Shown: positions 1-35,229 of the stretch, in pieces
How the letters are laid out: each line of letters starts with the position of its first letter
Position numbering within the stretch: position 1 is the stretch's first letter
Source of the DNA: an uncultured Oscillospiraceae bacterium
GTDB lineage: Bacteria > Bacillota > Clostridia > Christensenellales > CAG-138
Direction: 5' to 3'
Length of the DNA stretch: 58,736 nucleotides
Assembly (NCBI GenBank): GCA_964437665.1
Contig: CAYTHS010000004.1
Coordinates: 1-58,736, forward strand
The notes under the pieces: generated by a model
What the model was told of the DNA's origin: nothing
The model's database searches: none
Seen by the model: only the letters and a program-made list of their open reading frames with translations
Program-made: the position numbers and the translations under genes

Positions 1-2
1 TC

Positions 3-1352
3 GATGCGAGTGGATGTATCGTGAGGGCGGGTGGGATCGACCCGCACTGCCATATTGCGGGCGAGCCGCTCGAACTGCTGCGTGACGCAGGAAATCCGAT
101 CGTGCCAAACGTGACACGGCTTGGAAACGAATATGCGGGGATGGGCTATACGCTCGCCGTCAACGCGGCGATGCCCGCGCTCTCCGCGCGGCGCACGATC
201 ATTGAGGAAAACGCGATCCCGCTGCTGGACACGGCGAACCTCGTCTGGGCAGGGGAAAACCCGGTATTGCTCGCACTCGCCGCGCGTGGTTCCGACGGGG
301 ACCTAGACGAATATTTAGCCTGGCTGACGGCCGTCTCCGGCGCACGCGGGCTCAAGCTGATCAATCCGCGCGGGGGGGTAAGCGAGGGCGAATTACCGTA
401 CGAAAAACTGACAGACCGTCTGATCGACGCCTGCATCCGGCTGAGATTGCCGCATCCGCTGCACTTGCACCATCCGTTCCTCGGACGCTTGGGCGCATAC
501 GAGGCGGTTGCGGAGACGATTGACCGCGCAGCGGGAAGACCGCTGCACCTTGCACATCTCCAGTTTTACGGATACCGGCAGAACGAGGCGGGACGGACCG
601 TCTCCGCTGCGGAAGCGCTGGCGGACGCGCTCAACGCGCATAAAAACGTCACCTGCGACGCCGGCGCGGTCGTGCCCGGCGTGGCCGCGGCGGTCACGGC
701 GGACGCAGAGTTTGCCAAAAAGCTTGGCAAGGGCAAGCGCGGCTTCCGAAGCGAGCTTTGGGAAGCGGGCGGCGGGTTCGGCGTACTGCCGTTGCATTAC
801 GATCCGGAGAACGTCATGGGCGCCACGCAGTTTTTGACCGGACTTGAGCTCATGCTGCGCGTCGGCGACGCATCTAGGATCTTTCTGACCACCGACCATC
901 CCAATGGAGGACCGTTTACGGCGTATCCCTATTTGATCCGTCTTCTGACGGACAAGGCGTTCCGGGACGAAGAGATCGGGATGATGAATCCGAAGGCTGT
1001 GTCGCGCAGTGCAGTTCCGTCGATACAGCGGGAATACTCGCTCTATGAAATCGCGCAGGCGACGCGCTCCGGCCCCGCATCGGCGCTCGGCCTGCCGGAC
1101 CGGGGACATCTCGGCATCGGCGCGGCCGGCGGCGTCGCCGTGTACCGCGAACAGAAAAACAAAGAAAAGATGTTCCGCAAGCCCAAAAAGGTCATCCGCG
1201 GGGGGACGCATGTGCTCGCCGCACGCGAGCGCGGCTGCGATTTGCCCCGCGTGAAACGACGCGTGTCGGACTTGCTCAGCATACCGTTTGAAGAGGCGCA
1301 CCCGGGAAACACTTTTTTCGAAGAACACCGCGTCGCGCGGGAGGAGGCGTGA
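3..1352 (+). CDS. fwdA: Formylmethanofuran dehydrogenase subunit A / FhcA-like amidohydrolase (5'-truncated by window edge)
   Basis: Frame is open from position 3 (DASGCIVRAGGIDPHCHIAG). FwdA/FhcA motifs present: GLKLINP (carboxy-Lys position), HLHH, HLQFYGY, TDHPNGGPFTAYP, REYSLYEIA..TR.GPA..LGL, GHLGIGA. Confidence 0.85.
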   Translation, partial: DASGCIVRAGGIDPHCHIAGEPLELLRDAGNPIVPNVTRLGNEYAGMGYTLAVNAAMPALSARRTIIEENAIPLLDTANLVWAGENPVLLALAARGSDGDLDEYLAWLTAVSGARGLKLINPRGGVSEGELPYEKLTDRLIDACIRLRLPHPLHLHHPFLGRLGAYEAVAETIDRAAGRPLHLAHLQFYGYRQNEAGRTVSAAEALADALNAHKNVTCDAGAVVPGVAAAVTADAEFAKKLGKGKRGFRSELWEAGGGFGVLPLHYDPENVMGATQFLTGLELMLRVGDASRIFLTTDHPNGGPFTAYPYLIRLLTDKAFRDEEIGMMNPKAVSRSAVPSIQREYSLYEIAQATRSGPASALGLPDRGHLGIGAAGGVAVYREQKNKEKMFRKPKKVIRGGTHVLAARERGCDLPRVKRRVSDLLSIPFEEAHPGNTFFEEHRVAREEA

Positions 1353-1353
1353 T

Positions 1354-2094
1354 ATGGGCGTGGTACTGACGCTGAAAAAACCGCTGGATACCCTGCTCGA
1401 TCTTGAGCCGCTTTCGGCGCACGTTTCCGCCGGCATATGGGAGATTTCAGACACGCCGCTGCGGTATGGCAGGGAACGGATATCCGCCGGAGAGCTATTT
1501 TGCGTTCGGGAAACTGAGCAGACAGGGCTGACGCTGTGCGGCGACATACACCTGGCGATCAATGTCGGCGCGGGCATGCGAAACGGCAGGATAACAGCCG
1601 AATCGACCGTCGGTGCGGGTGCGGGCGCGCGTATGGCCGGCGGCGAACTTATTATTGCCGGCGACGCGGGCAAAAAAGCCTGTTTTGAAATGCAGAACGG
1701 ATTCGTGCAGATTTTCGGGGGCGCCGGAGATGGATTCGCGCACGGGGTCCGTCGCGGAACGCTGATTCTGTACGGCCGTGCTGAGGGCGAAGCCTGCGTG
1801 GATTTTCGCGGAGGGACGGCGCTGCTGCTTGGCGGTGTCGGAGATGCGGAAAAGCTTGCGGACGGGATGTCCCGCGGCACGGTGCTGCTGCCGAAAGGTA
1901 CCGCTGCGCCGGGTGGATTTTTACGCGCAGCGAACGGCGATTTCGTATTTTTGCGGCTGCTGTTTGCGGTACTCGGGCAGCGCGGGGTTTCTCTTCCGGA
2001 AGGCTGGCCCGGCGGCGTTTTCACGTGCTGGGTCGGCGATGCGGCGGGACTCGGCAAGGGCGAAATTTTCATTCCCATGGAGGAACGCGTATGA
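1354..2094 (+). CDS. fwdC: Formylmethanofuran dehydrogenase subunit C / FhcC-like GXGXG beta-helix protein
   Basis: GAGGAGG RBS, ATG at 1354. Repeating G..M..G.I...G.AG beta-helix pattern and C-terminal GDAAGLGKGEI. Directly follows fwdA. Confidence 0.8.
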   Translation: MGVVLTLKKPLDTLLDLEPLSAHVSAGIWEISDTPLRYGRERISAGELFCVRETEQTGLTLCGDIHLAINVGAGMRNGRITAESTVGAGAGARMAGGELIIAGDAGKKACFEMQNGFVQIFGGAGDGFAHGVRRGTLILYGRAEGEACVDFRGGTALLLGGVGDAEKLADGMSRGTVLLPKGTAAPGGFLRAANGDFVFLRLLFAVLGQRGVSLPEGWPGGVFTCWVGDAAGLGKGEIFIPMEERV

Positions 2095-2945
2095 AGCGGT
2101 TTGCTGTTCTGGGGACGAAACCCGGCTGGCACTGTGAGCGGACTATTGCAGCGTTCAAGCGGCGCGGGGCAGAAGCGGAATTTGTGACCGTGGAAACGCT
2201 GGTTGCTCCACTCGGCCTGCCGGAGGCGAAAGCGCCGCTGGCGGAATACGACGGGTTGCTGATCCGTGGAATCCCCGGCGGCTCGCTCGAACAGGTCATC
2301 TATCGAATGGACGCGCTGCACGTGCTCGAGCGCGGCGGCCTCAAATGCGTCAATCCACCGAAGACGATCGAAAAGACCGTCGATAAGTTTCTAACATCCG
2401 CTCTGCTTGAACAGGCCGGTTTGCCGGTCCCTCCAACGATTTGCTGCGAGGACAGGCAGGCTGCACAGGCCGCTTTTTTTATGCTGGGTGAAGACGTGGT
2501 ATACAAGCCGCTCTTTGGTTCCTGCGGCAACGGATTGCTCCGGCTGAAGAGTGTCGGCGAGGCGGAACGGGCGTTCGGCGAAATCGAAGAAGCGGGCGGC
2601 GTTTTCTATCTGCAGAAGTTCATTCCTTCCGGAAACAGCGATATCCGCGCGTTCGTGGTCGGCGGACACGTGATTGCGGCTATGAGACGTACGGGCAGCG
2701 ACTGGTTTGCAAACGTCTCAAAGGGGGGGCGCGCACAGGCGTATGTGCTCACGGCATACGAAGAAGAACTTGCGCTCGCGGCAGCGGCGGTTGTGCAGGC
2801 GGACGTGGCGGGGGTCGATCTGCTCGCGGCCGAATCGGGAGAGACGTTCGTTACCGAGGTCAACGGCTGTCCCGGCTGGCAGGGGCTTTCGAGCGTGACG
2901 GACGCGGACATTCCGGACGAAATCGTGTCGCTGTTTTTTGATTGA
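2091..2945 (+). CDS. RimK-family ATP-grasp alpha-L-glutamate ligase, MptN/Orf5-like
   Basis: ATGA overlap with the fwdC stop. Motifs GSLEQVIYRMDAL, NP..IEKTVDK, KPLFGS.G.G, YLQKFI, DIRAFVVGG, GVDLL, EVNGCPGWQG. Context with fwdAC. Confidence 0.8.
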   Translation: MKRFAVLGTKPGWHCERTIAAFKRRGAEAEFVTVETLVAPLGLPEAKAPLAEYDGLLIRGIPGGSLEQVIYRMDALHVLERGGLKCVNPPKTIEKTVDKFLTSALLEQAGLPVPPTICCEDRQAAQAAFFMLGEDVVYKPLFGSCGNGLLRLKSVGEAERAFGEIEEAGGVFYLQKFIPSGNSDIRAFVVGGHVIAAMRRTGSDWFANVSKGGRAQAYVLTAYEEELALAAAAVVQADVAGVDLLAAESGETFVTEVNGCPGWQGLSSVTDADIPDEIVSLFFD

Positions 2946-8220: not shown

Positions 8221-9036
8221 TCACATCACCCCGATGCCGAGCGTGGAGGTATAGATCAGCGCAGCGATCAGCACGAGCACCGCGATGCAGGCGGCGGACG
8301 CACCGGCGCTCGTCTTAACCGGACGAACGAATTTGGACTTTTTCGTTGCGCCGAAACCGCGCGCTTCCATGGTCAGCGCGATGTCCGAGCCGATTTCCAG
8401 AGAGTTCGAAAGCAACGGCGTGACGATGCGCATCATTTTCTTAAGCTTCACGCCTAACTTGCCTTTTTCCAACTCCATGCCGCGTGTCTTCTGCGCGTTC
8501 ATGAGGTTGATGGCCTGCCCGCGGATGATCGGGATGAAGCGCCAGGCGGTAGAGAAGATGAACGTGAGCTGTTTGGCCGCGAACGGCAGCTTACTTAGGC
8601 CGCGGATAAACTCCGTTGGCGGGACGGTGAAACCGAGAATCGCGATGGCGAACACCACCATATAGATCTTCAGGCACGCCGCAAGGCCGTAGAGCAACCC
8701 GCCGAGCATGACCGCGCCTTTTTGGTTTGGCAGTACATAGAACAAAACGGTCTTTTGAATCCATTCGCTGCGGATTAGGCTTGTGTCGATCGTAAACGCC
8801 TGAATCACAAGGATCAATACGGACGCAAACAGCGCGAATTTCAGAAACCACGCGATCTGCTTCCACGGGAAGCGGCAGCTTACGCCGGCGAGGTAAAGTG
8901 CGAGCGTCAGCGCGCCGAGGAAGAGAACGTTCGTCCAGACGATCGAGGCTACGATCACAAACAGCACGACCAGCATGGACACCTTCGGATTAAGGCGGTG
9001 CGCCCACGTATCCATTTTCCGGTAATCGACCAGCAT
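8221..9036 (-). CDS. ecfT: ECF transporter transmembrane T component
   Basis: Hydrophobic. N-terminal HRLNP.V, with AQKTRG and MEARGF conserved Arg motifs. Confidence 0.9.
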   Translation of the reverse strand: MLVDYRKMDTWAHRLNPKVSMLVVLFVIVASIVWTNVLFLGALTLALYLAGVSCRFPWKQIAWFLKFALFASVLILVIQAFTIDTSLIRSEWIQKTVLFYVLPNQKGAVMLGGLLYGLAACLKIYMVVFAIAILGFTVPPTEFIRGLSKLPFAAKQLTFIFSTAWRFIPIIRGQAINLMNAQKTRGMELEKGKLGVKLKKMMRIVTPLLSNSLEIGSDIALTMEARGFGATKKSKFVRPVKTSAGASAACIAVLVLIAALIYTSTLGIGVM

Positions 9037-9039
9037 GTG

Positions 9040-10761
9040 TTACGCCTCCTTTCGGGCCGCTGTGAAGCAGTTGTAAAATTCATTCACGGAAACGACGTTG
9101 TCCGGCATATACGGCAGCGCCTGTGCAATTTTCATTACGTCCGTTGGTTCGACATAAGCGGTTTTCAGGACGTCTGTTTTTGTGAAAACGTCCCGCGGCG
9201 CGCCGTCGAGCAGGATATTTCCGTTGCACATGACGACCACACGGCTGCAGTAGCGGTTCACGATCTCCATATTGTGCGTGATGATCAAAATCGTCTTGCC
9301 GCGTTCGTTGAGTTTTTTAAGCAAGTCCATGATCCAGAGCGTCTCGCGCCAGTCCTGACCGGTAGTCGGTTCGTCCACGATGACGACCTCCGGGTCCATT
9401 GTGATGATCGCGCCCATGCTCAGACGCTGACGTTCACCCTTTGAAAGGTATTTCGGCCAGGTGTTTTTGTAGCGTTCCAGTCCGACTTCGCAAAGGACTT
9501 CGGCGACCAGCGGGTCCGCGTCCGCACGGGGACGACCGAGATTGTCCGGCCCGAAATACAGTTCGTCGAGCACGCTGTCGGTGAAGATCTGTTCGTCCGG
9601 GTTCTGAAACACGTAACCGACGTCTGCGGAAAGCTCTGCTACTGTCCTGTCCACGATTTCATTTCCGCAGACGAGAATTCTGCCGGACTGCGGTTTCAAA
9701 AGACCGATGATGCTGCGCATAAGCGTCGTTTTACCCGCGCCGTTCTGTCCGATGACCGCTGCGAAATCGCCCTTGCGAAACGTAACGGAAACATCTTCTA
9801 GCTGGTTGGTCCCGCCGAGGTAACTGAACGCGAGGTGTTCCGCTTCGATGACCGGGTCCGCCGGAGAGGCCGGCTGATCCGCCGCGGGGGTGAACGTACG
9901 GGGCGTGTCCGGCATACCGGGCAGCGCAGAAAGCGTTTTGATCAGCGCGTCGGTCGAAAGAGGCACGCTGCCGATTACGCCGTCGCGCACGAGAAGATTC
10001 CCGATTTCGACGGACTGCGGCACGTTCATGCCCAACCCGGAAAGGCGCTCCGTCTGGGCGAAGACCTCCTCCGTCGTACCGCAGAGTACGATTCTCCCGT
10101 GGTCCATGACGCACACACGGTCGGCGTATTTCGCGACATGACTCATCTCGTGTTCGACAAGGACGATGGTGACGCCGTAGACCTTGTTGATGTCCTTAAT
10201 GATGGAAAACACGTTCTGCTTTCCCCAGGGGTCGAGCATGGACGTCGGTTCGTCGAATATGATGACCTCCGGCAGCATGGCGTACACACCGCCGATGGCC
10301 ACGGACTGCTTCTGCCCGCCGGAAAGCTCCTGCGGCTTGCGCTCGCGCAACGATTCGATGTTCAGGTCCTTTAGTGCTTTTCCAATGCGGCGCATGCATT
10401 CCGCGTAATCAAAGCCGAGGTTGCTCGGACCGAAGACGATGTCCTCCTCGACCGTCATGCCGAAGAGCTGCGCGTCTGCGTCCTGGAATACGAGACCGAC
10501 GCGTGGCGCCATCTCGTAGACCGGGTGCTTGCGCGTATCCAGCCCGGCGATGTTGACGCTGCCGGTCATAACGCCTTTGGTGAAATGCGGGACGATGCCA
10601 TTGAGACACTGGCAGAGGGTGCTTTTGCCCGCACCCGTCGGCCCGGTGACGACGAGGAACTCGCCCTTGTATACGTCGAGCCGGATATCGGCAATCGCCC
10701 GGCGGCGGCTGCCTTCGTACACGAAGTTTACGTTTTCAATTTTGATAATCGGTTCCGGCAT
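9040..10761 (-). CDS. ECF transporter fused double ATPase (A-A')
   Basis: Two ABC domains: GPTGAGKST/LSGGQKQ/DEPTS and GQNGAGKTT/LSKGERQ/DEPTTG. FQDAD and FQNPD Q-loops typical of EcfA. Confidence 0.92.
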   Translation of the reverse strand: MPEPIIKIENVNFVYEGSRRRAIADIRLDVYKGEFLVVTGPTGAGKSTLCQCLNGIVPHFTKGVMTGSVNIAGLDTRKHPVYEMAPRVGLVFQDADAQLFGMTVEEDIVFGPSNLGFDYAECMRRIGKALKDLNIESLRERKPQELSGGQKQSVAIGGVYAMLPEVIIFDEPTSMLDPWGKQNVFSIIKDINKVYGVTIVLVEHEMSHVAKYADRVCVMDHGRIVLCGTTEEVFAQTERLSGLGMNVPQSVEIGNLLVRDGVIGSVPLSTDALIKTLSALPGMPDTPRTFTPAADQPASPADPVIEAEHLAFSYLGGTNQLEDVSVTFRKGDFAAVIGQNGAGKTTLMRSIIGLLKPQSGRILVCGNEIVDRTVAELSADVGYVFQNPDEQIFTDSVLDELYFGPDNLGRPRADADPLVAEVLCEVGLERYKNTWPKYLSKGERQRLSMGAIITMDPEVVIVDEPTTGQDWRETLWIMDLLKKLNERGKTILIITHNMEIVNRYCSRVVVMCNGNILLDGAPRDVFTKTDVLKTAYVEPTDVMKIAQALPYMPDNVVSVNEFYNCFTAARKEA

Positions 10762-10766
10762 AACGC

Positions 10767-11777
10767 TTACGCCTCCTTTCCAGCGGAGCCGCGCGCTTTT
10801 GCGGCGGCTTTCATACGACGTATCAGTCCCCAGATAGCAAGGAGGAGGCCCAGCAGGCCGACCCAGTAGGTCCTGACGAATGTAAGGAACTCTGCAAACG
10901 ATGCAAATGCGACGTCCGGGCCCTTCTTCGTGCGGAGCAGCTTGTAGAAGATGAAAATGACCTGAAAGAGGACCATAGAACCGCCGAAAAAGAGCATGAA
11001 CGCTCCCTTGGGCGCTTTACGGGCTTGTTTTTCGCGGTACTGCGCTTTGAGCGCCGCGCCGGGATTGTCCTTTGCGTCCTGTTCGAGCATGGCGCTTACG
11101 ATACGCAGTTCTTCTTCGTCAACGGGTTCTTCATAGCGCCTGCGGGTCTGCGCGGCGGTAATCGCCGCGTACGCAAACGCCGCGAGCATGCAGTTCGCAT
11201 AAGAACCGAGCACCTGCTGAACGATGGTCGCCGCAAGCATGCCCCAGCCCATCATCAGCGGCCAGGGCGCGACGCAAAGGGTGTTAACGAACGTGCCGAC
11301 GATGATACCGGGAATTCTGCCAAACTTCTTGGTTGCGACGCCGAAGCTTGTGACAGCCAGAGCCATTGTGATCATGTAATAGGGCGCGAGCGGCGCCCAG
11401 CCGGAAAAGCCGCTCATGAGTTCCGAGAAGAACGCGCCGAACGCAGCAACGACCGCGCCGATCTGCCAGCCGAAAATCAGCGTTCCGAAGTAACCTGCCA
11501 GCGAGTCGAAGCGGATGCTGGTTGCGCCGGGCAGCGTGATAAGCCCGCCTGCGGCCGACAGCGCGGTGAGGATGGCGATGCGCGCAATGGTTCGGCTGCT
11601 CCAGCCGTCCTCCGCTACGGACGAAGGCAGGTGCTTGTTCCACCACAGGCCGAGGATGACCAGAAGGACGATATAAACCAGCGCGAACAGATACGAAACT
11701 GCCGCGCCTTTCGCGGTCATGCCGAGAGGCTTGAGCTTTTCAAGGACGTTCGGCACGACCAGCCAGATGTCGAGCAT
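10767..11777 (-). CDS. ECF transporter S component with extra N- and C-terminal membrane segments
   Basis: Core IARIAILTALSAAGG..LP...IRFDSLAGYFGTLIFG..IGAVVAAFG is typical of S components. Adjacent to A-A' and T. RBS AAAGGAGG before ATG at 11777. 336 aa. Confidence 0.75.
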   Translation of the reverse strand: MLDIWLVVPNVLEKLKPLGMTAKGAAVSYLFALVYIVLLVILGLWWNKHLPSSVAEDGWSSRTIARIAILTALSAAGGLITLPGATSIRFDSLAGYFGTLIFGWQIGAVVAAFGAFFSELMSGFSGWAPLAPYYMITMALAVTSFGVATKKFGRIPGIIVGTFVNTLCVAPWPLMMGWGMLAATIVQQVLGSYANCMLAAFAYAAITAAQTRRRYEEPVDEEELRIVSAMLEQDAKDNPGAALKAQYREKQARKAPKGAFMLFFGGSMVLFQVIFIFYKLLRTKKGPDVAFASFAEFLTFVRTYWVGLLGLLLAIWGLIRRMKAAAKARGSAGKEA

Positions 11778-12080
11778 GGTACGGGTCCCTCCTTTATGCA
11801 AACGATGTCTTTTCTTTTTGCCGTTCCCCCTCAACGCCGAGGAGCCGGAGAACCGGAGTGCGGAAGAGTCGGGTTTATCGGGCCGGGGGCCTTTGTTTTC
11901 CGCTTTCCGGACGCCAAGCGGCAGAGAAAGCTGTTTGAATCGGCCGGCATGCCCGTGGGACGGGGAGGCCTCCCTGCGTTTTTGCGGGGAGCTGGTTCGA
12001 CGTGCTGAGAAGCTCTGCCGGACGGGGCTGGAAAAGTTGCTGTAAAACGGTCTTCCGATTCGGCGGAGATACCCGCGATA

Positions 12081-15843: not shown

Positions 15844-15880
15844 CTGAAAAGCGCCTGAAAACGGCGGTTTAACGGCTATA

Positions 15881-15894
15881 CGCACATATGTGCG
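15881..15894. promoter_or_regulatory. Palindromic candidate operator CGCACATATGTGCG
   Basis: Perfect 14-bp palindrome between divergent promoters. The same GCACA-N2-TGTGC core recurs at 35218-35229. Confidence 0.5.
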
Positions 15895-15945
15895 AGTATG
15901 TTTTGCAATTATGTCCGGATAATGAAAATAGATTATAATTAATAC

Positions 15946-17325
15946 ATGGGGTATAACGATATGGCAAGAAACACGGTTTTCATCAAAGGCGCGCGCATGG
16001 CGGCGGAAAACGGCGGGGAACAGATCTGCAGCCTGTTGCTTGCGGACGGCAAGATTGCCGCCATAGGAACAGACGAAGCGCCGGAGGGTGCGGAAACGTT
16101 CGACGCGACGGGATTGGTCGCGCTGCCGGGCGCGGTGGATTCCCACGTGCATTTCTTTATGCAGGCGGCGAACGGGAAAAGGAATGCGGACGATTTTTAC
16201 GCCGGTTCGAAAGGCGCCGTCTGCGGCGGTACGACGAGCATTGTCGATTTTGCGAGTCCCGTTCCTGGCGGAAGCTGGACGGACGGCGTGAACACCCGCC
16301 GCGCGGAAGCGGACGGGAACGTGTTTTGCGACTACGGGCTGCATATGGAGGTCACGGGCGCGTTTGAACAGGATATTTCAAGACTCGGCGAACTGCTCGA
16401 CGCGGGCGTACGCGTATTGAAGATCTACACGACCTACGGCGCGGACCGTTATCCGCGTAAAAAACTGCACGCGCTGTTTGCCGAGGCAAAGCGTCTGGGG
16501 ATGCCGGTCCTGGCGCACTGCGAAGACGACGAAATCATCCAGAAAACGAAACGACGCATGTGCAGGGAAGGCCGGATTGCGGCGGCGCTGCACGGGGTCA
16601 GCCGTCCGGCGGCTGCGGAGATTGCCGCAGTGCAAGAACTGATTGCGCTTTCGGAACAGACGGGCGCGGAATTGATCGTCGCGCACGTTTCCGTGGGCGA
16701 AGCGGGACTGTTGATTGCCTCGGCGAGAAAGCGCGGCGTACCGGTCCATGCGGAAACCTGCCCGCACTACCTTCTGCTCGACGAAAACCGCTATGCGGGG
16801 AAAGAGCCGCAGCGCTGGATTATGACCCCGCCGCTGCGGTCGAAGCGCGACGGCGAAATTCTCTGGGGACTGCTCGAAAGCGGCGATATCGGTATGGTTT
16901 CCACCGACCACTGCCCGTTTGCGCTTGCGCAAAAGCTCGCTGAGCCGACGTGTTTCGGCGCGATTCCCGGTGTAGGCGGGTGTGAAAACATGGTGTCGCT
17001 GCTCTTTTCGGAAGGGTATCAAAAAGGCCGGCTCACGCTGTCACAGCTTTGCAGAAGGCTGTCGGGCGAAGCGGCGCGGCGGTACGGACTATCCCCGCAA
17101 AAGGGAGGACTTACCGCCGGTTCGGACGCGGACGTGGTGCTGATTGACCCCGGCGCGCCGCGGGTTCTGCGCGCGCAAAGCGAGCACGGCAACGCGGGAT
17201 ACTCTATTTGGGAGGGGTTTCCGGTCGGCTGTTCGGTGCGGTATGTATTTTTGCGCGGGGAGCTCGCCGCCAGGGACGGCGAACCAGCCGGTGTGGCGCG
17301 GGGTATGTTTTTGCACAAAAAATAA
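15946..17325 (+). CDS. hydA: Dihydropyrimidinase / D-hydantoinase family cyclic amidohydrolase
   Basis: PGAVDSHVHF, GGTTSIVDF, KIYTTY, AHCED, HVS, ETCPHYL, MTPPLRS, STDHCPF, PGVGG.E. Start is either 15946 or 15961. Confidence 0.88.
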   Translation: MGYNDMARNTVFIKGARMAAENGGEQICSLLLADGKIAAIGTDEAPEGAETFDATGLVALPGAVDSHVHFFMQAANGKRNADDFYAGSKGAVCGGTTSIVDFASPVPGGSWTDGVNTRRAEADGNVFCDYGLHMEVTGAFEQDISRLGELLDAGVRVLKIYTTYGADRYPRKKLHALFAEAKRLGMPVLAHCEDDEIIQKTKRRMCREGRIAAALHGVSRPAAAEIAAVQELIALSEQTGAELIVAHVSVGEAGLLIASARKRGVPVHAETCPHYLLLDENRYAGKEPQRWIMTPPLRSKRDGEILWGLLESGDIGMVSTDHCPFALAQKLAEPTCFGAIPGVGGCENMVSLLFSEGYQKGRLTLSQLCRRLSGEAARRYGLSPQKGGLTAGSDADVVLIDPGAPRVLRAQSEHGNAGYSIWEGFPVGCSVRYVFLRGELAARDGEPAGVARGMFLHKK

Positions 17326-18691: not shown

Positions 18692-19660
18692 TCAAAGCGT
18701 GTTGAAAAAGTAGCTTTTCAGCAGCATGTCCGCGTCGGTCTGTCCTGCAAAAAACGTTCTGCCGGTCTTTTGATTGGTTAATTCGATGCGCGCGACCTTG
18801 TGTACGTTCGTATCCATCTTGAAGATGTCGCGCCCTGCGGCGTCATAGAGTTCGGCGAACGTTTTGCCGTTGTGCTCCGTGCCGGAAAACACCATGTGCG
18901 GCAGGACGCGCTCGATTTCTTCGTCCCTGCAGTATACGACATATTTTGCGACTGAGCCGTAGAGCGTGGAGGAATTGACGCGGTCCATTGCGATTAACTC
19001 GTCTTCGATTACCGGCGGAATTGCCGCGCTGCCCGAGAAGGACTTCACCTTTTCGAGCGGAAAACCGTTGTAGCCGAGTCCCCAGAGCGAGACCTCTGCC
19101 ATCCGCGCGGCGATCTGCACACATCCCACGAGACTGCCGGTTTTCGCCGCGAGCAGGTACACGTTTTCCGGCTTGACGCCGCAGGCCTGCGCCACCTCGT
19201 CCGCGACGGACTCGTCCGGAAGCGCGGCGGTCTGCAGTGCGAGGGCGGTTTTTTCAAATTTATCGTGGTACGGCCACATCTTTGCGATTCCGTCGTGGTA
19301 TGCGATTGCGCGCGCGGGGCCGGAGCCGAAGCCGGGCAGCTTGTACGCGCCGGAAGGCTTGATCTTCCAGGCGGAAAACTGGGAGGAAAGCGCCGCCTCC
19401 TGCGGATGGTCCAGCCGGATCTCGACGCTCTCGAGTTCGCGGGCGCCGACGTGGATTTTGCCGAATGCAACTTCACCGAGCGCACCGAGCGTGACCAGCG
19501 TGAACAGCCGTGCGGCCTCCCAGCCACCGGGAGCGTGAACGCCCATGTCGATTATGTTCGTTCCGTTTTTCAGCGTGTGTCGTTCGCATCCAAGCTCCCA
19601 AAGGCGCGGCAGAATCCGCTCCTCAATGAGCCGGCAGGTGTTTTGACTCAGACTAAGCAT
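18692..19660 (-). CDS. mch: Methenyltetrahydromethanopterin cyclohydrolase homologue (Mch-1)
   Basis: IIDMGV.APGGWEAA, ALSSQFSAW, GSGPARAIA, P....VA..CGV.PENVYLL.A.TGSLVG.VQIAARMAE, G.A.IPPV, AM.R.N...LYG. 322 aa, matching Mch size. Confidence 0.85.
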   Translation of the reverse strand: MLSLSQNTCRLIEERILPRLWELGCERHTLKNGTNIIDMGVHAPGGWEAARLFTLVTLGALGEVAFGKIHVGARELESVEIRLDHPQEAALSSQFSAWKIKPSGAYKLPGFGSGPARAIAYHDGIAKMWPYHDKFEKTALALQTAALPDESVADEVAQACGVKPENVYLLAAKTGSLVGCVQIAARMAEVSLWGLGYNGFPLEKVKSFSGSAAIPPVIEDELIAMDRVNSSTLYGSVAKYVVYCRDEEIERVLPHMVFSGTEHNGKTFAELYDAAGRDIFKMDTNVHKVARIELTNQKTGRTFFAGQTDADMLLKSYFFNTL

Positions 19661-25727: not shown

Positions 25728-26675
25728 TTATACGAGCAGTTCGGGGTACAGGGAACCTGCGCGGAACGCCTTGCCGCACGCCGGATCGAAGACTTCAGCT
25801 ACGGCGAGCTTGTTGATATGCTGCAGGTTCGGGATTTTGAAAAAATCGCCGCCCGCCTGATCGAGCAGGTCGGAAAAGTACGCACCAAAGATATCCGCCG
25901 ACTCAAACGCGAGTTTTTTTGCAAGCTTCTCCGGGTCGAGACCGGAGGTTTCGTTCAATGTGAGGCGGGAAAACGCGCCATAGTGCAGAAAATCGTCAGG
26001 AAGCAGCGCTTTTCCGCTCTTTGTTTTTGCGCCGGGAGGGCAGACGGGGGCATAACCTGCGACGTACGAAACACAAGACGCGTCAATCCCGAGAGAACGT
26101 TCCATGGTAAAGATCATATTCTCGTTCATGCGGCCCGCGATCTGCGCCGCACCGAGCGTGCTGTCCTGTGCGGCTACGAGCAGGGTCAGTTTCTCCGGCG
26201 AACAGCCGGCGGCGTCCGCCAACAAAGAAACCCAGCGGTCATCCGGCGTTTCGTCCGCCTGCACGAGCGCGCACAGACTGCCGCCGGACGGGTCGCTTGG
26301 ATCGCCGATTTCTTCCGTGTGCTCCAGGTGCAGTTTGAGCGGACCGGAGATCATATGACCGGAAAACGAGTGCGCGGACTGCAGTGCGAGCGCCGCAAGA
26401 CGCGGATATGCGGTTTCGGAGCGGACAAACGGGTACGTCCGGTCACACAACGGCGCGGAGTATGCCCGCGTTTCGGCCAGCCCGCCTTGGCAAAGCGCCG
26501 CAGCCAGCGCGCCGGCGGCCGTGCTGCCGGGCGTCTCGTTTTCCACGGTTATCAGCAAAGCGCCGCAGTGCGCACGGCTGGTGACGAGTCCGTATGCGCC
26601 GGCGTTTTGCGTTAGTTCGCCGATCAGCGCTGCACAGTTCGATCCGATTTTGCCGAGGGTCGGTTTTTCGCGCAT
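25728..26675 (-). CDS. Divergent methenyl-H4MPT cyclohydrolase homologue (Mch-2)
   Basis: GS..AG...A..CQGGL, P.LAAL..Q, SGP, P....LA...GC.PE.L.LLVA...S..G.AQIAGRMNE, G.APVCP, LHYG. 315 aa. Alignable by eye to Mch-1. Confidence 0.65.
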   Translation of the reverse strand: MREKPTLGKIGSNCAALIGELTQNAGAYGLVTSRAHCGALLITVENETPGSTAAGALAAALCQGGLAETRAYSAPLCDRTYPFVRSETAYPRLAALALQSAHSFSGHMISGPLKLHLEHTEEIGDPSDPSGGSLCALVQADETPDDRWVSLLADAAGCSPEKLTLLVAAQDSTLGAAQIAGRMNENMIFTMERSLGIDASCVSYVAGYAPVCPPGAKTKSGKALLPDDFLHYGAFSRLTLNETSGLDPEKLAKKLAFESADIFGAYFSDLLDQAGGDFFKIPNLQHINKLAVAEVFDPACGKAFRAGSLYPELLV

Positions 26676-35217: not shown

Positions 35218-35229
35218 GCACATTTGTGC
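35218..35229. promoter_or_regulatory. Palindromic candidate operator GCACATTTGTGC
   Basis: Lies in the second divergent promoter region and shares its core with 15881-15894. Confidence 0.5.

Follow-up and report, generated by a model that had tools for sequence, protein, structure and literature searches.

At the start of a 58,736-nucleotide stretch of DNA (the window) from contig CAYTHS010000004.1 (C4) of an uncultured Oscillospiraceae bacterium (assembly GCA_964437665.1; 221 contigs, 2.96 Mb, 92% complete) lie three closely packed genes related to those for the formyltransferase/hydrolase complex (Fhc) of methylotrophic bacteria. They are the 3′ three-fifths of a five-gene operon, fhcD-fhcB-fhcA-fhcC-ligase, the remainder of which lies on a second contig, C82 (locus L010):

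L010:1016-1909, minus strand: ftr/fhcD, 297 amino acids (TIGR03119 and both Ftr Pfam domains)
L010:132-1019, minus strand: fhcB, 295 amino acids (profile-profile and fold comparison)
L010 (contig C82):135-1, minus strand: fhcA codons 1-45, overlapping window bases 1-5
Window 3..1352, plus strand: fhcA, residues 45-493 of 493 amino acids, a metallo-amidohydrolase and predicted formyl-carrier hydrolase (TIGR03121, 6S6Y_A)
Window 1354..2094, plus strand: fhcC, 246 amino acids, predicted beta-helix scaffold subunit (TIGR03122, 6S6Y_C)
Window 2091..2945, plus strand: RimK-family ATP-grasp glutamate ligase, 284 amino acids, counterpart of Orf5/MyfB (TIGR00768, MptN model)

The coordinates of the open reading frames (ORFs) and the family scans agree with a first-pass annotation of this DNA, which had described fwdA, fwdC after 1 bp and then a ligase, with no formyltransferase between A and C; none is encoded by the window ORFs there. 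The fhcC ATG at 1354 is 1 base past the fhcA stop, and the ligase ATG at 2091 gives a 4-nt overlap with the fhcC stop. The frame 3-1352 is open at its 5′ end, and window base 1 is base 1 of C4, so that an assembly break cuts fhcA at residue 45. A 642-residue open frame antisense to fhcA and fhcC (window 393-2321, minus strand) has no family support and is a by-product of high G+C content, even though a naive gene call by longest ORF placed it ahead of the real genes.

A family search of the genome located the N terminus of FhcA at the very end of C82. The reverse complement of C82 ends ...GAAACGTTCGAT and the window starts TCGATGCG..., with a 5-nt overlap across which the frame is continuous, giving a 493-residue FhcA. 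The joined protein is 72% identical end to end, and gapless at the joint, to the 491-residue FhcA of a relative with a complete chromosome (L012). Two contigs assembled from sludge runs span the joint, one of 294 nt (run X1; window 1-181 and C82 1-118) and one of 668 nt (run X3; window 1-467 and C82 1-206), and in each the two sets of coordinates overlap by exactly 5 bases. The join is also backed by synteny in seven relatives. All operon junctions are 4-nt overlaps or a 1-nt gap, and the operon is flanked by a divergent gene upstream and convergent genes downstream. The longest fhcD ORF (L010:1016-2092) has a GTG start and would encode 358 residues; homology, the ATG starts of the relatives and a GGAGG ribosome-binding site instead point to the ATG at L010:1909 as the real start, giving 297 residues. 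A promoter of consensus type, TTGACA-N17-TATCAT, precedes fhcD (L010:1965-1937).

The first of the two explanations offered in the first-pass annotation, that ftr lies upstream of the window, is borne out by the ftr/fhcD and fhcB genes on the abutting contig. The same annotation held that these two genes immediately upstream would make the locus an ordinary, rearranged Fhc operon. Both are indeed there on C82, but the features described below make the locus more interesting than that. For all five genes the ratio of nonsynonymous to synonymous substitution rates (dN/dS, against L012) is 0.05-0.20, the ratios being rough as dS is saturated. Together with intact frames in eight genomes, these albeit rough ratios rule out a pseudogene or relic.

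We compared the 80 best FhcD loci, taking one genome per species. Seven belong to metagenome-assembled genomes (MAGs) of Clostridia, labeled Christensenellaceae, Oscillospiraceae, Lachnospiraceae, Clostridiaceae or Clostridia bacterium, whose FhcD proteins are 68-83% identical to that studied here. The order D-B-A-C-ligase is present in the genome of the window and in six of the seven Clostridia loci, the other (L017) giving D-B-A up to the contig end; the fhc operon is thus conserved across eight genomes of a small Clostridia clade. The other 73 loci (Proteobacteria, Planctomycetota, Rokubacteria, NC10 and others) have A-D-C wherever those genes are present, and some thirty of them also have an mch-ligase pair within a few kb. 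Among 401 genomes (174 genera) sampled from the order to which the window belongs, FhcD scored over its cut-off in just two, that of the window and one from another genus of the same family (G345), in keeping with the earlier remark that such an operon is unusual for a Firmicute.

G345 has the same operon and genomic island, with the order D-myfA-like-B-A-C-ligase. Its extra gene, between fhcD and fhcB (L094:14509-15588), encodes a 359-residue ATP-grasp protein with a weak match to MfnD and 25-35% identity to the product of the gene that immediately precedes mch in canonical methylotroph loci, the position of OrfY/MyfA. The window's own genome has no homologue of this MyfA-like gene. G345 also encodes a second, divergent Ftr paralogue (L096:8604-9464; 27% identity, 131 bits), placed between a TRZ/ATZ amidohydrolase plus zinc alcohol dehydrogenase and a BMP-type ATP-binding cassette (ABC) transporter; FhcA, FhcB and FhcC are not encoded nearby.

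In the FhcD tree, the Clostridial sequences form a monophyletic clade (100/100) that has a stem of 1.04 substitutions per site and lies inside the bacterial radiation. The tree holds one archaeal sequence only (Methanosarcina barkeri Ftr), which is distant and lies across the midpoint root, so the rooting is provisional. A recent transfer from a methanogen or methylotroph is unsupported by this long-stemmed, monophyletic clade within the bacterial radiation, as seen in a tree with that single archaeal sequence.

FhcD is near-canonical. Its TIGR03119 score is 358 bits (cut-off 292.6), and it is approximately 50% identical to the solved structures of M. barkeri Ftr and Methylorubrum extorquens FhcD; its predicted oxyanion Glu, in the motif CVYELVL, falls opposite the Glu of VLEIVI in the alignment to 6S6Y_D. 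It retains 86 of the 99 canonical conserved columns, a set defined by conservation of 95% or more across 64 non-Clostridial FhcD sequences from bacteria (equivalent sets were used for the other proteins, with a 90% threshold for FhcC), and its changes are mostly conservative.

The window fragment of FhcA scores 337 bits on TIGR03121, and full-length FhcA 381.6 bits; the match to 6S6Y_A has E = 7.8e-77, and several loops are shortened in that alignment. The metal ligands of M. extorquens FhcA are His57, His59, carboxy-Lys176, His229, His258 and Asp377 (PMC6926001). FhcA has identical residues at all six positions (H59, H61, K162, H200, H229 and D342 in the full-length protein), as the first-pass annotation had noted in judging these positions intact:

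Window 45-47, 51-53, 354-356, 468-470, 555-557 and 894-896, plus strand: FhcA codons for the predicted metal ligands H59, H61, K162, H200, H229 and D342, respectively

FhcC is more divergent, with a score below the family cut-off (TIGR03122, 93 bits versus 130.65; canonical 262) and 18 of 27 conserved columns retained. Its best PDB match is 6S6Y_C, and the alignment includes residues 209-264; in M. extorquens Fhc, the C-terminal helix-loop-helix of FhcC docks FhcD (PMC6926001).

The ligase scores 201.8 bits on TIGR00768, over the cut-off of 143.4. On the MptN model it reaches 226 bits, versus 196 for a canonical bacterial Orf5-type ligase, neither attaining the equivalog cut-off of 350. It retains 32 of 34 conserved columns and is 36-48% identical to most of the mch-adjacent ligases of canonical methylotroph loci, which occupy the position of Orf5/MyfB. 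By these comparisons the operon ligase is the counterpart of Orf5/MyfB. MyfB elongates the polyglutamate tail of methylofuran (PMC8141765), and in M. extorquens Fhc basic Lys/Arg surfaces hold this tail (PMC6926001). Judged from sequence, both catalytic chemistries of the complex look intact, and the surfaces holding the methylofuran tail are not evidently conserved.

Because the 295-residue B subunit gave neither a Pfam match nor a PDB sequence match, it was identified only by profile-profile comparison and fold search. Its score of 25.8 bits is to the C-terminal part of the FwdB model only (canonical 295.6). In a collection of 5.8 billion proteins it has 32 relatives, each with 50% identity or more and none with a Pfam domain; the named ones are all annotated ‘hypothetical protein’, for which reason such operons look incomplete in public data. 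Using hhalign, a profile of the B subunit was aligned with a canonical FhcB profile, built on the genes that precede fhcA in 13 methylotroph-type loci, at a probability of 97.2% (E = 4.6e-11) over 278 columns starting from canonical column 76. The AlphaFold model of the B subunit has a mean predicted local distance difference test (pLDDT) score of 89.4, and in a Foldseek search it matched FwdB (8RJA_B and 5T5I_B; E ~1e-16, template modeling (TM) scores 0.79-0.84) and FhcB (6S6Y_B; E = 1e-11), with TM scores of 0.71-0.84 across the FwdB/FhcB matches. The Cys-rich segment at the N terminus is missing, and the family has no Cys that is invariant or close to it. For these last two reasons, the 295-residue protein is predicted to be a reduced, cofactor-less FhcB-type scaffold and not a dehydrogenase subunit.

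The fhc operon lies at the edge of an N-heterocycle catabolic island, of purine/pterin type, that encodes two xanthine-dehydrogenase-like molybdoenzymes, YgeY, SsnA, a D-hydantoinase, TRZ/ATZ-type amidohydrolases, a PreA-like flavoprotein, a glycine/sarcosine-oxidase-like flavoprotein, a nucleoside-type ABC importer, an energy-coupling factor (ECF) importer and a 2-oxoacid dehydrogenase complex. The features that bear on its relationship to the operon are:

L010:2017-1989, minus strand: 29-nt operator-like element ATGCAATTATGTGCATGTATTTGTTGCAA, upstream of the fhcD promoter and in the same place in six relatives
Window 15880..15908, plus strand: second copy of the 29-nt operator-like element, upstream of the hydantoinase gene, from a position weight matrix (PWM) scan
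Window 15946..17325, plus strand: D-hydantoinase/dihydropyrimidinase-type amidohydrolase (TIGR02033, 367.8 bits)
Window 18692..19660, minus strand: Mch-1, methenyl-tetrahydromethanopterin (methenyl-H4MPT) cyclohydrolase homologue (PF02289, 292 bits; TIGR03120, 237.9 bits, cut-off 228.8)
Window 25728..26675, minus strand: Mch-2, divergent Mch paralogue (PF02289, 123 bits; TIGR03120, 118.5 bits, below the cut-off)

A PWM built from the fhcD-upstream sites of the six other genomes was scanned on both strands of the whole 2.96-Mb genome. The genome's own fhcD site ranked first (49.4 bits) and the site at window 15880-15908 second (27.6 bits), the next reaching 17.7 bits; the orthologous hydantoinase-upstream site in L013 scores 28.5 bits. 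The hydantoinase gene is therefore probably co-regulated with the fhc operon. Occurring in the genome only at the fhcD and hydantoinase sites, the element supports a functional tie between operon and catabolic island more strongly than any other observation. A search of C82 for the palindrome GCACANNTGTGC gave no match with one mismatch or fewer; the element actually in common is longer and emerged from an alignment of the relatives and from the PWM. A GCAC-N4-GTGC palindrome at window 35218-35229 has only the core in common with the 29-nt element.

Mch lies in the same island as the fhc operon in four genomes, and in the two relatives with complete chromosomes (G001 and G002) both Mch genes are within approximately 15 kb of the operon, a distance also given for Mch-1 in the genome of the window. 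The ECF-type importer is encoded 5 kb past the ligase (window 8221-11834, minus strand) and comprises a CbiQ-like T component, a fused A-A′ ATPase and a 355-residue protein without a family match. On the other side, a divergent operon stands head to head with fhcD (L010 2141-9194, plus strand), as it does throughout the seven Clostridia loci. Its products are a DeoC/LacD-family class I aldolase (ADH-synthase/LsrF-like), an LsrR/SorC-type regulator, a zinc alcohol dehydrogenase, a DAGK-like kinase and a UgpB-type sugar ABC transporter. No match for the aldolase was found in L016, and in G345 the regulator and kinase are also next to fhcD. The conservation of this divergent sugar-type operon suggests a functional or regulatory link to fhc.

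In the canonical pathway Mch makes the formyl-pterin substrate of FhcD, and Fhc depends on two elaborate cofactors, H4MPT and methylofuran. We are confident that the operon encodes an Fhc-type complex, the assembly of the subunits into which would follow the pattern of the known Fhc. We further propose, as the probable though less secure reading, that this complex releases formate by formyl transfer followed by hydrolysis, is fed by the product of Mch and serves N-heterocycle catabolism. Mch, encoded 16 kb downstream, would yield an N5-formyl-pterin-type donor, from which FhcD (Ftr) would take the formyl group. The acceptor would be the primary amine of a carrier with a glutamate tail, which the FhcB/FhcC scaffold would hold; hydrolysis of the formyl-carrier at the FhcA di-metal site would then yield formate, and the operon ligase would act as the glutamate ligase for the formyl carrier. 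The fhc module would thereby be detached from the rest of the H4MPT pathway and, most likely, provide the formate-releasing step of the N-heterocycle island. We hold this wider proposal less firmly than the identity of the operon product because the physiological role and the cofactors are inferred; the same holds for the direction of the reaction, for the donor used in the cell and for what the pterin and the carrier are.

Several observations weigh against the proposed formate-releasing role. RFAP synthase (TIGR00144) was not found in the window's genome (G000) or in the complete chromosomes of G001 and G002, and MfnB (PF04476), MtdA/B (PF09176) and Fae (PF08714) were not found in G000, G001, G002 or G345; RFAP synthase, MfnB, Mtd and Fae were all found in the positive control, a Planctomicrobium genome (G003). 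RFAP synthase is the committed step of H4MPT synthesis, and MfnB forms the furan ring. Because RFAP synthase, MfnB, Fae and Mtd are absent, nothing known supplies the methenyl-pterin or the carrier core. Of the genes that the first-pass annotation had thought informative elsewhere in the genome, ftr and fhcB are thus present, while Mtd, RFAP synthase and MfnB were not found. When all ORFs of seven canonical 20-kb loci were compared with the window's genome using tblastn, counterparts were obtained only for FhcA, FhcC, FhcD, Mch and the ligase. The lineage keeps the ‘methenyl to formyl to formate’ segment and the tail ligase, and nothing known that makes or loads the cofactors.

The proteins themselves add to these difficulties. 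The family scores of FhcA, FhcB and FhcC are at most half of canonical values; full-length FhcA is under the TIGR03121 cut-off of 392.75, with a canonical FhcA (L018) reaching 780.9 bits. FhcA retains just 93 of 128 canonical conserved columns, and a basic residue persists at 11 of its 23 conserved Lys/Arg columns. FhcC is basic at five of 17 mostly-basic canonical columns, an approximate count as the alignment is at 25-35% identity. With the FhcC basic patch, as judged from column conservation only, largely gone, a polyglutamate anchor of the M. extorquens type may be absent here. Finally, G345 has at least eight full-length Mch paralogues, versus two in the genome of the window, and this expansion fits direct action on varied substrates better than it fits one cofactor-bound step.

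One alternative, which we think unlikely, is that the bacterium salvages genuine methanopterin and methanofuran, or close analogues of them, from digester methanogens for use as cofactors, and that the enzymes carry out the canonical steps from methenyl-H4MPT to formate. FhcD and Mch-1 are over the equivalog cut-offs for H4MPT enzymes, and near-canonical FhcD leans toward this explanation. Tail-building ligases are retained without genes for core biosynthesis, the metagenomes that yielded the organism and its relatives are of sludge, wastewater and bioreactors, and an ECF vitamin-type importer is encoded downstream. The apo form of M. extorquens Fhc does not bind short-tailed archaeal methanofuran (MFR) (PMC6926001), so salvage would need tail extension: the operon ligase, and in G345 the MyfA-like ligase also, would extend the glutamate tail such that Fhc holds the salvaged furan. 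Against salvage, the ECF transporter is not beside the operon in L012, L013 or L015; no enzyme is available to load one-carbon (C1) units on H4MPT or to oxidize them to the methenyl level, Fae and Mtd being absent; and the basic anchor residues are poorly conserved. Moreover, we know of no uptake system for methanopterin or methanofuran.

A second alternative, to which we likewise assign a low probability, dispenses with H4MPT and methanofuran. Mch-fold enzymes would open the amidine/imidazole-type rings of purine- or pterin-derived intermediates, yielding 5-formamidopyrimidines that resemble N5-formyl-pterins; FhcD would move the formyl group to the amine of a glutamate-chain carrier built by the operon ligase, and FhcA would free formate, making the complex a deformylase for ring-opened heterocycles. 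The absence of genes for H4MPT/MFR synthesis and C1 loading is consistent with this scheme, as are the location of the operon in a heterocycle catabolic island and the operator-like element it has in common with the hydantoinase gene. The limited retention of canonical conserved columns in FhcA, and in Mch-1 (33 of 60), points the same way, and the Mch expansion in G345 leans to this scheme, as does the orphan Ftr paralogue encoded there next to an amidohydrolase and a nucleoside-type ABC transporter. In contrast, the high retention of conserved columns in FhcD, with mostly conservative changes, argues for an unchanged donor and acceptor, and a simple formamidase would suffice without a four-subunit complex. 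To our knowledge, a non-pterin substrate is known for no member of these families.

The other explanation offered in the first-pass annotation, that FwdA/FwdC is a stand-alone formamide hydrolase without a formyltransferase, drew on the fact that no ftr lies between A and C in the window and is now very improbable. The contig join rules it out: ftr/fhcD and fhcB are directly upstream and translationally coupled, and the five genes occur together in eight genomes, in which A is coupled in this way to D, B and C. The whole complex, rather than FhcA alone, may still act on a non-canonical N-formyl substrate, since the H4MPT and methanofuran synthesis genes are absent. A CO2-reducing formylmethanofuran dehydrogenase (Fwd/Fmd) as in methanogens, as the names of the best-matching families for A, B and C (‘formylmethanofuran dehydrogenase subunit’) and the top structural matches of B (FwdB) might suggest, can be dismissed, as the 295-residue B subunit has neither the N-terminal Fe-S domain (the hhalign match starting only at canonical column 76) nor a conserved Cys for Mo or W ligation, FwdD, FwdF and FwdG are not encoded in the operon, ftr is within it, and FhcC aligns with 6S6Y_C through the Fhc-type C-terminal region.

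In a published survey, Fhc is described as occurring exclusively in aerobic methylotrophs (PMC10100899), and Firmicutes are listed only generically among the holders of H4MPT/methanofuran-linked genes (Chistoserdova 2016; PMC5020050). We found no description of such a system in the literature on Fhc, Ftr and Mch in Clostridia or in purine degradation; the D-B-A-C-ligase order, the reduced B subunit, the anaerobic Clostridial host without cofactor genes and the link to heterocycle catabolism are thus apparently undescribed. These bacteria must salvage methanogen cofactors, make them by unknown routes or use the enzymes on new substrates, and each of these would alter how metagenomic ‘H4MPT-pathway’ genes are interpreted. 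If the scheme without H4MPT were true, it would represent a new use for the C1 enzymes of methanogens and methylotrophs, as machinery for deformylation in the anaerobic fermentation of N-heterocycles.

The proposed Fhc-type complex is similar to M. extorquens FhcABCD (6S6Y; PMC6926001) with respect to its subunits, which belong to the same four families: a di-metal amidohydrolase whose ligands are identical (FhcA), a cofactor-less scaffold of FwdB fold (FhcB), a predicted beta-helix protein (FhcC) and an Ftr with the catalytic Glu (FhcD). In both systems an Orf5/MyfB-type glutamate ligase is associated. However, the gene order is D-B-A-C-ligase rather than the B-A-D-C of M. extorquens. FhcB, which has no Pfam match and no N-terminal CxxC segment, has 295 residues, compared with approximately 355-430 in FhcB of the M. 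extorquens type; FhcA has 493 residues rather than 548 and has lost half of the conserved basic residues, and the FhcC basic patch is largely missing. Contrary to the methylotrophic setting of M. extorquens Fhc, the host is an anaerobic Clostridium without Fae, Mtd, RFAP synthase or MfnB, and the context is one of N-heterocycle catabolism.

The operon ligase, like MyfB (Orf5; PMC8141765) and archaeal MptN, is a RimK-family ATP-grasp enzyme, but its gene ends the fhc operon, whereas the MyfB-type gene is beside mch. MyfA (OrfY) is absent from the window's genome, although G345 has the MyfA-like gene inside its fhc operon; the furan-core genes are missing here. Relative to archaeal Fwd/Fmd (5T5I, 8RJA) and Ftr (1M5S, 1FTR), the A, B and C folds match, and FhcD is close to M. 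barkeri Ftr at the identity given above. In contrast to the archaeal enzymes, the B subunit has no Mo/W-pterin site or Fe-S domain and there are no D, F or G subunits, features that rule out an Fwd-type dehydrogenase, and the ftr gene is part of the operon.

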